Shown in pieces: positions 18,478-23,053 of a stretch of DNA of 64,000 nt. The stretch covers positions 96,001-160,000 of IMG/VR virus record IMGVR_UViG_3300042892_002922; one strand, 5' to 3'. Made by a program: the position numbers and the translations under genes. This DNA comes from a virus. Taxonomy: Duplodnaviria > Caudoviricetes. Below the pieces are notes generated by a model. It was not told the DNA's origin and ran no database searches. It worked only from the letters and a program-made list of their open reading frames with translations. Within the stretch, counting starts at the first letter, position 1. Every line of letters starts with the position of its first letter.

Positions 18478-21297
18478 ATGGCAAATTCAAACAGAGTTTT
18501 CGTTTCTCCGGGGGTCTACACTTCAGAGAAAGATTTAACATTCGTAGCGCAAAGTGTAGGGGTAACAACATTGGGTTTAGTAGGTGAAACTTTAAAAGGT
18601 CCAGCTTTCGAACCAATCTTGGTGTCTAATTTCGACGAATTCAAAACATATTTTGGTGGCACTTCACCCGCAAAAGACGGAAGTGATAACCCAAAATACG
18701 AGTTACCTTATGTAGCAAAATCATATTTACAAGAATCAAATCAGTTATTTGTAACCCGAGTATTGGGTTTAACTGGTTATAAACCAAACAGAACCTATGG
18801 TATTAAAACATTGGGTGGTATGGTTGTTGGAGACCTTGTAACAACAGGAACAACAACTGGAACAACAGTGGTTACCGCAAGTGGTATTACTGGTTCAACA
18901 TTTTATGCTGAACTTTCAGGAAAAACAGCATCTGATGGCGACTCAGTACCAGGATTTATCTTAGACCAATATAGTGGAAACACTAGTGGGAATACTGGTA
19001 ACTGGTTTACAATTGGAACTGTACCAACTGCTGCAACAAGTTCTTTAACTGGAACCACTGTTTCATCACCAATAGGTGCTAGTGCAACCAAAAACTGGTA
19101 TAACACATACTCAAACTTTACAAACAAGGTTTATTCATACCTATTCGTTTATAATCACGGAACAACATCATTTGATGTTACAAGATATGAATATAGCGCA
19201 ACTTTAGCAAATGACGGAAAAGTTGTTTGTTTGTTAAGGTCTAGAGGTTCATACATTTCGGAAGTATTAACACATAGAGTTACTGGTACAACATCGGTTC
19301 AAATTACTGGATCAGATATTGCATTAGATCCTTTATCAGAATTCACATTAACTGTTACAGACGTCGATGCTGATGTTAGAACATTTGATTGTAGTTTTGA
19401 CACTGCTTCAACAAAATATATTACAAAAGTTTTAGGTGTTGATGTTTTTGATAAAGAAAAAACGGTTAACCCAATATATGTTCACGAAGTTTATCCAAAT
19501 TTAATTAAAAATCTTTTCCAACAAGGTCAAATCAGAGGTTTAAATACTACTGAATATGTAAACGCAGAAGGAACAGATTTTGTACAACAATGGGATATGG
19601 CGGGTTCAAATTTAGTTGTTTCTGAAGTAAGAGGTGGTAACGTATTTGATTTATTTAGTTTCTTAACAATATCAGATGGTAACGCTTCTAATAATGAAGT
19701 TAAAATTACTATTCAAAATATTAATGTTGAAACTGGTGAATTTGATGTTTTAGTTCGTGATTTTTATGATTCAGACGAAAACCAAGTGGTTCTAGAGAAG
19801 TTCTCAAGATGTTCAATGAATCCGGATCTTCCAGGTTTCGTTGCTAAAAAAATTGGTACATCTGATGGTGAATATGAAATCAGAAGTAAATACGTTATGT
19901 TAGTATTGGCTGATAACGCGCCAGCAGACGCAATTCCAGCGGGTTTCAAAGGATGTACAACCAAAGATTCTATCGGAGGTTTAACATTTAAAACAAAATA
20001 CAATACAGCAGGTGAAACAATTTATTATAACACAGATGGTAGTGCGGAAATATCTAATGGAGATAAAGTTAAAAAAGTAACATTAGGTTTATCATCGCAA
20101 TCACATATTGGATATGACAAAGACATGTTCAAATTTAAGGGTGTTGGTGCTAATGAGGTAACATTTGGTTTTCACTTATCAACAAATGCCTCAACAATAA
20201 CTGACGCTAATGGAAATACAGTATATGAAACAACTGCATATGACTTTGAAGGTCAAACAGGTGTGGATAACCCATTAACAGGTATATCTTATTGTAAATT
20301 CACATTACCAGTATTTGGCGGATTTGATGGTTGGGATATCTACAGAAATGTTAGAACAAACACAGACGGATATATTTTTGGTAAAAACACATATTCAACC
20401 AATCACTCAACAAGTGGTGGTGTATTCAGTTCAACAGTTGGTAACTCAGATTATTACGCTTATTTAGAAGGTATTAATTCATTCTCTAATCCAGAAGCAG
20501 TAGATATTAATTTATTTGCAACTCCAGGTATCAATTGGTTAAACCACAGTTCTCTTGTAACTCAAGCTATTGATATGGTTGAGAATGATAGAGCGGATTC
20601 ATTATACATTATTAATGCACCAAACCACACAACAACAGCGGAAGTTGTTGATGATTTAGATAGTGTTAGTTTAGACACAAACTATTCAGCAACTTACTGG
20701 CCTTGGATTCAAGTAAGAGATACTGACAACGCAACTCAACTTTACTTACCACCAACAGGAGAAGTTGTTAAAAACATTGCATTAACCGATAATGTATCAT
20801 ATCCTTGGTTTGCAGTTGCAGGTTATTCAAGAGGTTTAGTTAACTCAATTAAAGCAGCTAAAAAATTAACATTAGATGATAGAGATGAATTATACAAAAA
20901 CAGAATTAACCCAATTGCGACATTCTCTGATACAGGTACAATTATTTGGGGTAACAAAACCTTACAAGTAAGAGAATCAGCATTAGATAGAATTAACGTA
21001 AGAAGATTGTTATTAAGAGCTAGAAAGTTGATTTCAGCAGTAGCAGTTAGATTATTGTTCGAACAAAATGATGATCAAGTAAGACAAGAATTCTTAAGTT
21101 TGGTTAACCCAATATTAGATTCTATTAAGAAAGAAAGAGGTTTGTATGATTTCCGCGTAGCGGTTTCTAACGACCCAGAAGACATTGATGCTAACACACT
21201 AAGAGGTAAGATTTACATTAAACCAACTAGATCATTAGAATTTATCGATGTAGAATTCATAATAACACCAACAGGTGCTTCTTTTGAAAATATATAA
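18478..21297 (+). CDS. Contractile tail sheath protein with large insertions
   Basis: N-terminal SPGVYTSEKD; C-terminal YSATYWPW, PWFAVAG..RG, LYKNRINPI, WGNKTL, RINVRRLL and IKPTRSLEFI. Confidence 0.95.
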   Translation: MANSNRVFVSPGVYTSEKDLTFVAQSVGVTTLGLVGETLKGPAFEPILVSNFDEFKTYFGGTSPAKDGSDNPKYELPYVAKSYLQESNQLFVTRVLGLTGYKPNRTYGIKTLGGMVVGDLVTTGTTTGTTVVTASGITGSTFYAELSGKTASDGDSVPGFILDQYSGNTSGNTGNWFTIGTVPTAATSSLTGTTVSSPIGASATKNWYNTYSNFTNKVYSYLFVYNHGTTSFDVTRYEYSATLANDGKVVCLLRSRGSYISEVLTHRVTGTTSVQITGSDIALDPLSEFTLTVTDVDADVRTFDCSFDTASTKYITKVLGVDVFDKEKTVNPIYVHEVYPNLIKNLFQQGQIRGLNTTEYVNAEGTDFVQQWDMAGSNLVVSEVRGGNVFDLFSFLTISDGNASNNEVKITIQNINVETGEFDVLVRDFYDSDENQVVLEKFSRCSMNPDLPGFVAKKIGTSDGEYEIRSKYVMLVLADNAPADAIPAGFKGCTTKDSIGGLTFKTKYNTAGETIYYNTDGSAEISNGDKVKKVTLGLSSQSHIGYDKDMFKFKGVGANEVTFGFHLSTNASTITDANGNTVYETTAYDFEGQTGVDNPLTGISYCKFTLPVFGGFDGWDIYRNVRTNTDGYIFGKNTYSTNHSTSGGVFSSTVGNSDYYAYLEGINSFSNPEAVDINLFATPGINWLNHSSLVTQAIDMVENDRADSLYIINAPNHTTTAEVVDDLDSVSLDTNYSATYWPWIQVRDTDNATQLYLPPTGEVVKNIALTDNVSYPWFAVAGYSRGLVNSIKAAKKLTLDDRDELYKNRINPIATFSDTGTIIWGNKTLQVRESALDRINVRRLLLRARKLISAVAVRLLFEQNDDQVRQEFLSLVNPILDSIKKERGLYDFRVAVSNDPEDIDANTLRGKIYIKPTRSLEFIDVEFIITPTGASFENI

Positions 21298-22176: not shown

Positions 22177-22926
22177 ATGGAAAATTTTAACATAGACCCC
22201 TCAATTGCATACGACGTTGTGCAATTACCTTCGCAAGGACTATCATACACAAATAAGAAAAAATCCGTCAGGGTGGGTTATTTAACCGCTGCTGATGAGA
22301 ATGTATTGATGTCCCCCAACTTAATCAATGGCGAAGCCGTTATTGACGAATTATTAAGAAGAAAAATTCTTGATAGAGATTTAGACGTAAATGAACTTTT
22401 AGAAGAAGATAGACAAGCAATCTTAATTTTCTTGCGAAATACCGCATTTGGTACAATTTATAAGGTAAAAGCGGTTGACCCTAAAACAAGTGAAAATTTT
22501 GAACAGGATATTGATTTATCTAGTTTAAAGACAAAAGATTTTACTTTAAAAGCAAACGAAAATGATGAATATTCATATCATTTACCAATCTCTAAAAAAG
22601 ATATTACATTCAAATTCTTAACACAATTACAAGAAAATGAATTACTAACAATAAGAAATAAAACAACTGGTAAAGAAGTTTCTAATGTAATAACCAAACG
22701 ACTAGAAATGATGATTAAATCCATTGATGGGAATAAAGACCCAATGGCACTTTACCAATTCATTCAAACGATGCCAATTAAGGACTCTCAGGACTTTAAG
22801 AAATTCGTTTCAGATAATAAACCAGGATTAGATTTGTTTATTGATATAGCCGCCCCGTCAGGAGAAAAAGTCACAGTTGTTATTGACTTTGGGGTGGAGT
22901 TTTTTCGTCCTTTCTACGGATTATAA
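22177..22926 (+). CDS. Baseplate hub assembly / tail assembly chaperone (T4 gp26-like)
   Basis: 'YDVVQLPSQG..Y....V.V.YLTAADENVL' and C-terminal FGVEFFRP; located between tube and tape measure. Confidence 0.75.
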   Translation: MENFNIDPSIAYDVVQLPSQGLSYTNKKKSVRVGYLTAADENVLMSPNLINGEAVIDELLRRKILDRDLDVNELLEEDRQAILIFLRNTAFGTIYKVKAVDPKTSENFEQDIDLSSLKTKDFTLKANENDEYSYHLPISKKDITFKFLTQLQENELLTIRNKTTGKEVSNVITKRLEMMIKSIDGNKDPMALYQFIQTMPIKDSQDFKKFVSDNKPGLDLFIDIAAPSGEKVTVVIDFGVEFFRPFYGL

Positions 22927-22936
22927 GAAATATCAA

Positions 22937-23053
22937 ATGGATGAAATATTATTCTTGTTGAAAAACGGTTTTACGTATCAAGATGTATTAATGATTCCAG
23001 TACACGAAAGAAGAAATTTCGTTAGTTATTTATTTGACTTGCAAAATGGTTAA
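22937..23053 (+). CDS. Small tail-chaperone extension ORF (38 aa from its own ATG; frame open from 22850), probably also reached by +1 frameshift
   Basis: MDEILFLLKNGFTYQDVLMIPVHERRNFVSYLFDLQNG*. The 'Y..V..[MI]P..ER..F' pattern resembles the short ORFs that follow tail chaperones. Confidence 0.7.
   Translation: MDEILFLLKNGFTYQDVLMIPVHERRNFVSYLFDLQNG

Follow-up and report, generated by a model that had tools for sequence, protein, structure and literature searches.

How does a phage place two related proteins in the slot where the lambda-like phages make a short and a long tail assembly chaperone? Programmed frameshifting in this slot is a hallmark of long-tailed phages, and it is nearly always in the −1 direction; the T4-like phages are a noted exception. 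The locus considered here lies in a 64,000-nucleotide stretch of viral DNA (the window: positions 96,001 to 160,000 of IMG/VR record IMGVR_UViG_3300042892_002922) and links both cases: a chaperone gene of the T4 gp26/gp51 family in the classical slot, with what is most likely a +1 shift, an event rare in bacteria. Comparison with relatives makes it quite likely that this one tail-assembly gene gives rise to a short and a long protein by a +1 frameshift at a run of T residues. The recoding event would most likely be a +1 ribosomal slip at UUU_C.

The short-form open reading frame (ORF) ends GAG (22897) TTT TTT CGT CCT TTC TAC GGA TTA TAA. The +1 frame is free of stops from 22850 to 23050 and terminates at the TAA of 23051–23053, and the −1 frame is shut about 20 codons past the shift site. 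When TTTC (22903–22906) is read as one step, the product has 291 residues and runs ...GVEFF-VLSTDYKKYQMDE...LQNG. Possible starts in the +1 frame are ATG 22937, which sits 8 nucleotides past the 0-frame stop, and TTG 22877 and 22883; a 58-residue ORF begins at TTG 22877. An initial annotation, made from the letters alone, had given the end of the ORF, the open +1 frame from 22850 to the TAA at 23051, and the products of 291 versus 249 residues; it was correct in every detail, and the closure of the −1 frame at about 20 codons was confirmed as well.

The window has a G+C content of 33%, and its DNA is present in many lake-water metagenomes. Contigs from three lake metagenome runs, belonging to different studies, match the stretch exactly, with no insertions or deletions (these runs may include the source sample). 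A 151-nucleotide contig from a freshwater metatranscriptome is an exact match to the gp26-like gene at 22688–22838; it falls short of the shift site and could be derived from DNA.

A conserved site at the end of the short frame

Two scans of IMG/VR yielded about 100 loci of 56–99% protein identity, with 53–60 distinct sequences around the site. The motif GGG GTN GAN TT(T/C) TTT CGY is kept in 60 of 60 distinct close relatives; the next codon is CCY, and once TTT. Translated in the 0 frame, the tail reads FFRPF(Y/F)G(L/I/V) with the stop at the same codon in all close relatives, taking the form FFRFFYGL in one locus, L087. The initial annotation's proposal turned on the conservation of TTT_CGN together with an open +1 frame, and both (as TTT_CGY) are present in 60 of 60.

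Conservation extends to the choice among synonymous codons. The arginine codon is CGY in 60/60, and in the window's genes CGT and CGC make up 10% and 3% of arginine codons (13% together) vs 77% for AGA. The two phenylalanine codons are TTT in 59/60 and 60/60. The glycine codon is GGG in 60/60 relatives, although GGG accounts for only 9% of the glycine codons in the window's genes; another invariant glycine of the same gene is encoded by all four codons among the relatives. This rare GGG (22891–22893) precedes the T-run by three codons, in a segment with no translation in the +1 frame, and no explanation for it was found. It is absent from a distant clade, described below, in which the site reads T7-GGCC.

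Positions 22888–22925 form an island of nucleotide identity: in the three metagenome runs, many otherwise divergent lake contigs match only there. Contig depth in these runs rises 2- to 8-fold only over 22878–22931. This local rise arises because many divergent contigs match just the site region of about 38 nucleotides and differ to either side of it. The same lakes harbour several related phages.

The +1 frame is a coding frame

Over the 35 codons past the 0-frame stop, 58 distinct sequences contain no stop in the +1 frame, as against 2.9 per sequence in each other frame; the frame is thus open more than chance would allow. Variability by codon position in the +1 frame is 0.95/0.60/1.33 bits in the same sequences, the pattern of a coding sequence, and an alignment of 14 distinct extensions displays a conserved pattern of residues. 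Residues S5, Y8, K9, K10, and Q12 of the +1 read are each kept in 53 to 58 of the 58 sequences, and all of them precede the ATG of the window. Position 13, where the window has its methionine, is L in 28 relatives, I in 20, M in 9, and Y in 1. The protein-like conservation upstream of ATG 22937 that the initial annotation anticipated is therefore present, and only 9 of 58 retain the ATG.

Some lineages delimit the place of the frame change. In seven loci (L013, L015, L045, L108, L110, L027, and L106), the +1 frame has a TAG one codon ahead of the T-run. The frame change must fall between this TAG and the 0-frame stop, an interval of nine codons that begins with the T-run. Moreover, five of the seven (L013, L015, L045, L108, and L110) have no ATG, GTG, or TTG between the TAG and the conserved core of the extension.

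The same layout in distant phages

A profile of 14 distinct extensions was compared with 1.84 billion representative proteins. The search returned 54 small proteins, all of 32–158 residues, whose leaders are unconserved and in which conservation runs from FF onward. The DNA of five such proteins, and that of Microcystis phage Mel-JY01, reads N TTT TTT TGG CCT at the same place. In this distant and highly diverse clade the 0 frame reads FFWP and then stops within a few codons, and the +1 frame reads FFGL(T/S)xxY(K/R). The T-run is T7 in six distant loci found through their proteins (L112–L116 and Mel-JY01).

A pattern scan of IMG/VR with T7-GGCCT-N10-TATA found at least 120 loci; these were selected on the site, and so gauge the spread of the layout rather than the conservation of the site. 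Among the matches listed, the gp26-like ORF ends 5–8 codons from the start of the T-run, with the extension in the +1 frame, in 119 of 120; there are at least 118 distinct extension sequences, of 61–106 residues. The listed loci include 111 distinct ones with enough flanking sequence, of which 34 lack a canonical start for the extension and 88 lack one at or after the T-run. In these listed loci the −1 frame closes at a median of 3 codons. The same layout recurs in Mel-JY01, in Flavobacterium phage immuto, and in the 484-kb uncultured phage LR756508.

Natural single-frame fusions were absent from the best 120 of 3478 homologues, all of which stop at the shift site. One apparent fusion, protein P0130, was set aside as a probable assembly error: it comes from a 963-nucleotide TARA scaffold (L111) that contains Ns, and its frame changes about 8 codons before the T-run.

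In GenBank, the immuto record lists a 'baseplate hub subunit', a 112-nucleotide 'gap', a hypothetical protein of 36 residues, and a 'tail tape measure protein'. The Mel-JY01 record has two overlapping hypothetical proteins, and the frameshift is marked in neither. The start of the extension is left intergenic in vB_FspM_immuto_2-6A (L237:4027-4138; NC_055915.1 150539-150650), and lies within an overlapping hypothetical gene of Mel-JY01 (L029:3728-3964). Both records probably need a frameshifted chaperone feature.

Two of the distant loci have a further peculiarity. In L115 (903-1151) and L116 (948-1196), TGA has to be decoded as tryptophan for the extension ORF to yield the protein in the database, and the gp26-like tail in the 0 frame likewise meets a TGA. 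Stop-codon recoding may occur in a relative of this phage family.

Short and proposed long forms in the gp26/gp51 family

The short form matches PF12322 (T4_baseplate) at 36.1 bits (cut-off 24.5), its residues 27–243 covering profile positions 12–218 of 219, and it matches phrog_150 with E 5.9e-10. T4 gp26 (208 residues) and gp51 (249 residues) both match the same two families. Coverage of the 282 positions of phrog_150 separates the two T4 proteins: gp26 spans 14–235, and gp51 spans 13–280. The window's short form spans 15–233 at 40 bits, and the +1-joined form spans 15–269 at 44.3 bits, a gain of 4.3 bits. In addition, phrog_634, which represents the carboxyl-terminal half of gp51, is matched by 12 of 53 members of the extension family (best E 9.8e-8), and hhalign places the extension weakly on gp51 residues 218–244 (E 0.035). 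The T4 proteins are too dissimilar to be matched by BLASTP.

Because the extension family matches the carboxyl-terminal part of gp51, the short form is gp26-like and the long form would be gp51-like. These profile matches support a correspondence of the short form to T4 gp26 and of the long form to gp51, with the pair coming from one gene. The initial annotation had suggested that the gp26-like protein and the short downstream ORF make a G/GT-like pair; the two-frame pair is supported, and the refinement is that one gene would supply both members, the long form being gp51-like.

T4 and the window thus share a protein family, and in both a short and a long form have a domain in common. T4 gp26 ends ...KEFFELL where the window's short form has ...VEFFRPFYGL, and gp51 continues into a tail that aligns with the window's +1 extension. 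The genetic arrangements differ: T4 makes gp26 and gp51 from two separate, divergently placed genes beside baseplate genes, with gene 25 directly after gene 26, whereas the window has a single gene between tube and tape measure and would require a +1 shift for the long form.

The chaperone identity of the gp26/gp51 family is already published: papers that cite Vladimirov, Gautam and Davidson (2022, Virology 566:9) credit them with naming gp26 and gp51 as the tail assembly chaperones of T4. As summarised in one citing paper (PMC10274946), T4-type phages have one short gene plus one longer fused gene in place of frameshifting. The AlphaFold2 model of the short form (9 sequences) has a mean predicted local distance difference test (pLDDT) of 59 and a predicted template modelling score (pTM) of 0.43, too poor for a fold search; a predicted complex of the tail tube protein with the 50-residue extension scored 0.00, which counts neither way.

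Direction and mechanism of the proposed shift

The sequences show that the site is conserved, that the +1 frame is coding, that many lineages lack start codons, and that there is homology to gp26 and gp51; direction, mechanism, and efficiency of the shift, and the role of each form, are inferred. Three lineages in which the T-run is broken bear on direction: L087 reads GAA TTC TTT CGC, LR756508 reads AAC TTT CTA, and immuto reads AGC TTT CTT TGG. Each retains a run of T3 only and keeps the two-frame layout. In each, the P-site tRNA could slip ahead by one base and pair anew (UUU to UUC, or CUU to UUU). The sequence UUU_C occurs in 60 of 60 close relatives and in LR756508 and immuto (the latter could slip on CUU_U as well), and the T7 clade has UUU_U. 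Since the three broken lineages keep UUU_C or CUU_U, a +1 ribosomal slip is favoured over a −2 shift or transcriptional slippage. Furthermore, UUU_Ynn is prone to +1 shifts in bacteria and has a precedent in influenza PA-X, and a +1 slip with a slowly decoded A-site codon is therefore favoured.

The initial annotation had allowed for a '+1 (or −2)' shift; the codon contexts of L087, LR756508, and immuto favour +1 and disfavour −2. Its motif, UUU_CGN, holds in all 60 close relatives and must be broadened for the wider family, which mostly has UUU_UUU_UGG.

This suggests a model. Most ribosomes would proceed straight to the TAA at 22924 and release the 249-residue gp26-like short form. A minority would shift to +1 at UUU_UUU_C (22900–22906): with UUU (22903–22905) in the P site and the rare CGU waiting in the A site, tRNA-Phe would re-pair with UUC (22904–22906), so that GUC is read next. 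The shifted ribosomes would reach the TAA at 23051 and complete the 291-residue long form with its gp51-like carboxyl-terminal extension. The tryptic junction peptide of this +1 product would be VTVVIDFGVEFFVLSTDYK, with two phenylalanines. The slowly decoded A-site codon would be CGY in close relatives and UGG or CUA elsewhere. By analogy with lambda G/GT, the common part may bind the tape measure and the extension may recruit another tail component.

Several points weigh against this model. The sole RNA contig ends at 22838, before the site. The T-run retains its first UUU in 59/60, more than a plain P-site slip on UUU_C requires, so that an E-site effect, a −2 shift, or transcriptional slippage could be at work. 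The window's phage has ATG 22937, so a separate product of 38 residues is possible there. No single-frame fusion was found among the close relatives, and the window's own 50-residue extension, taken alone in a profile search, matches no family. RNAalifold gives no consensus RNA structure downstream, and the window's own fold is no better than that of shuffled sequence (z about +0.5). A Shine-Dalgarno stimulator of the RF2 type was likewise rejected: the strictly conserved GGGG lies 6–9 nucleotides upstream of the T-run and ends 8 nucleotides before the P-site codon, which is too distant for such a stimulator (3 nucleotides). A weak hairpin, with GGGG paired to YCCY, would have the shift site inside it.

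A +1 frameshift of the RF2 (prfB) kind was considered as a whole and discarded, for the A-site codon is a sense codon, the stimulator spacing is wrong, and Shine-Dalgarno sites are scarce: only 1 of 32 window genes (starts 2103–63166) has a Shine-Dalgarno-like motif, and the upstream regions are A/T-rich. This near absence fits a host of the Bacteroidota type, and a cultured relative infects Flavobacterium. No tRNA genes were found in the window.

Alternative explanations

The rivals to a +1 ribosomal slip differ in where they place the extra or missing step. Transcriptional slippage would place it in RNA synthesis: at the T6/T7 run the polymerase omits one U or inserts two extra ones, and some mRNAs then encode the long form in one frame. 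An rU:dA hybrid is generally slippage-prone (reviewed in PMC5009743), and the run is T6 in 59/60 close relatives and T7 in the six distant loci found through proteins (L112–L116 and Mel-JY01). However, runs of six or seven are short for bacterial-type polymerases, and L087, LR756508, and immuto have only T3, no homopolymer at all, yet keep both the two-frame layout and UUU_C or CUU_U. The base and codon past the run (CGY or UGG, then CC) are also strictly kept, which fits an effect in the A site. Slippage by the polymerase is thus unlikely. The same three lineages speak against a −2 ribosomal shift, in which tRNA-Phe would move from UUU to the UUU two bases back and insert an extra phenylalanine (...EFFFVLS...). 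T6 and T7 would permit perfect re-pairing, but the landing codons are non-cognate in L087 (UUC UUU), LR756508 (AAC UUU), and immuto (UUU CUU). The tail chaperone of phage Mu uses a −2 shift; such shifts are rare, however, and known cases need extra factors. A −2 shift here is highly improbable, the more so of these two.

Two separate genes would need no recoding. In this case the downstream ORF would be initiated on its own, at ATG 22937, at TTG 22877 or 22883, or by re-initiation after the TAA at 22924, to give a free protein of 38–58 residues. Gene callers predict such small proteins; the window has its ATG 8 nucleotides past the stop, an ATG precedes the conserved core at some point in 18 of 53 close relatives, and the +1 frame of 30 of 53 contains a TTG or GTG upstream. 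Against this, a methionine at the window's position occurs in only 9/58, while S5, Y8, K9, K10, and Q12 ahead of it are conserved, and canonical starts are missing altogether from five distinct close relatives and from 34 of the 111 distant loci among the matches listed. The upstream TTGs are a by-product of the conserved 0-frame codons for V-D-F-G, and the TAG of several lineages severs them from the core. Finally, the small-protein leaders are unconserved, with conservation beginning at FF, and T4 gp51 has the homologous tail fused in frame. Independent initiation is accordingly very unlikely, lying between polymerase slippage and the −2 shift in probability. Least credible by far is an artefact or a decayed gene, whether through a sequencing error in the homopolymer or through a mutation that shifted the frame of a single ORF. 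Homopolymers are error-prone, and the frame change in scaffold L111 does look like an assembly error; but more than 170 distinct sequences, drawn from independent metagenomes, and three phage genomes in GenBank share the layout with its conserved 0-frame tail, and the contigs of three runs agree exactly. This explanation can almost be dismissed.

Comparison with other recoding systems

Chaperones of the lambda G/GT type are made by programmed frameshift (Levin 1993; Xu, Hendrix and Duda 2004, 2013, 2014, summarised in PMC5009743). The window's gene occupies the same slot, from tail tube to tape measure. Its shift would likewise fall within the last few codons of the short ORF and give the long form a carboxyl-terminal extension, and neither frame is dispensable in the relatives. 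In the lambda-type system the tape measure is bound by the short form and the tube protein by the extension, and virions contain neither form. In contrast, lambda shifts by −1 on a tandem slippery heptamer, whereas the −1 frame of the window closes and the conserved open frame is +1; the signature of a −1 shift on an X_XXY_YYZ heptamer is not seen at the window's locus. Nor was sequence similarity to the gpG families detected: only 1 of 53 extension members touched a chaperone PHROG, with E 0.03.

The slippery site itself has closer counterparts elsewhere. UUU_Ynn is prone to +1 shifts in bacteria, as in Yersinia YopN-TyeA; the influenza A PA-X site is UCC_UUU_CGU, and amalgaviruses also shift by +1 on UUU_Y (PMC5009743). 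The window has the same core of UUU plus C, with CGU in the A site, potential re-pairing of tRNA-Phe with UUC, and no evident RNA stimulator. The differences are that translation here is that of a bacterium and its phage, that the preceding codon is UUU, not UCC, and that the wider family has UUU_UGG or CUU_UGG.

Other +1 shifts, established or probable, are on record for phage structural and assembly genes. The shift sites of Listeria phage PSA are reportedly of the CCC type, next to a stop codon. The title of Zimmer 2003, as cited in PMC9024508, attributes a +1 shift to the capsid and tail proteins of PSA, and the haloarchaeal myovirus HSTV-2 has a probable +1 chaperone shift (PMC5009743). 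As proposed for the window, the +1 shift in these phages adds a carboxyl-terminal extension to a structural or assembly protein; the protein families are different ones, and none is gp26/gp51.

Implications for the T4 arrangement and for annotation

The site is conserved in hundreds of distinct uncultured phages and in at least two cultured ones. The aquatic clade concerned has hosts that include Flavobacterium and Microcystis, genomes of up to 484 kb, and more than 3400 protein clusters. The layout suggests how T4 genes 26 and 51 arose. Tentatively, and with some doubt, a stimulator-free +1 shift on UUU_Y or CUU_U before a hungry codon (CGY/UGG) could be the ancestral and dominant route to the gp26/gp51 pair in this very large clade of aquatic myoviruses, and the two genes of T4 a derived duplication. 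If true, no other +1 recoding event known from bacterial viruses would be as widespread, and current genome annotation misses it.

There are practical consequences as well. GenBank records of cultured phages present the region as an 'intergenic' gap or a tiny hypothetical gene, which annotation pipelines could correct. The cultured relatives also offer a natural system for +1 shifting in hosts with hardly any use of Shine-Dalgarno sites.

Gene neighbourhood

Coordinates of the locus and its neighbours are collected below.

Features of the tail gene locus in the window
Feature	Positions	Strand	Remarks
Tail sheath gene	18478–21297		phrog_23, PF04984; upstream of the tube gene
Tail tube gene, 162 residues	21569–22057	+	phrog_4542, E 8e-26; directly upstream of the gp26-like ORF
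gp26-like tail assembly chaperone ORF (short form), 249 residues	22177–22926	+	0 frame to TAA 22924–22926
Nucleotide-conservation island, TTTGGGG through the T-run to the 0-frame stop	22888–22926	+	Consensus drawn from 53 distinct sequences
Proposed shift site, TTT TTT CGT	22900–22908	+	Confined by the +1-frame TAG and the 0-frame stop in relatives
Putative long-form extension in the +1 frame, 48 codons and the TAA	22907–23053	+	291-residue read; long form would be 22177–22905 joined to 22907–23050
ORF callable from ATG 22937, 38 residues	22937–23053	+	Taken as part of the long form; separate initiation possible in this phage
Probable tape measure protein, 659 residues	23071–25050	+	Assigned from position

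In 13 distinct related loci (80–99% identity) the gp26-like gene is likewise preceded by a tube ORF, and the order tube, gp26-like gene, extension is kept in related loci. Comparison of the locus with GenBank phages by blastn gave no match.

The 659-residue ORF downstream has no match in Pfam or PHROG, and BLASTP against the immuto tape measure was also empty. It has Gly/Ala-rich stretches, and 98 of its 100 best named language-model neighbours belong to tape-measure clusters (PF10145, PF20155) with scores of 0.90–0.92, which is a lead. In Flavobacterium phage immuto, the gene at the equivalent position is annotated as tape measure. The 659-residue ORF is thus probably the tape measure protein, and the initial annotation's placement of the chaperone gene between tail tube and tape measure is borne out: the tube by phrog_4542, the tape measure by its position, its language-model neighbours, and the immuto annotation.

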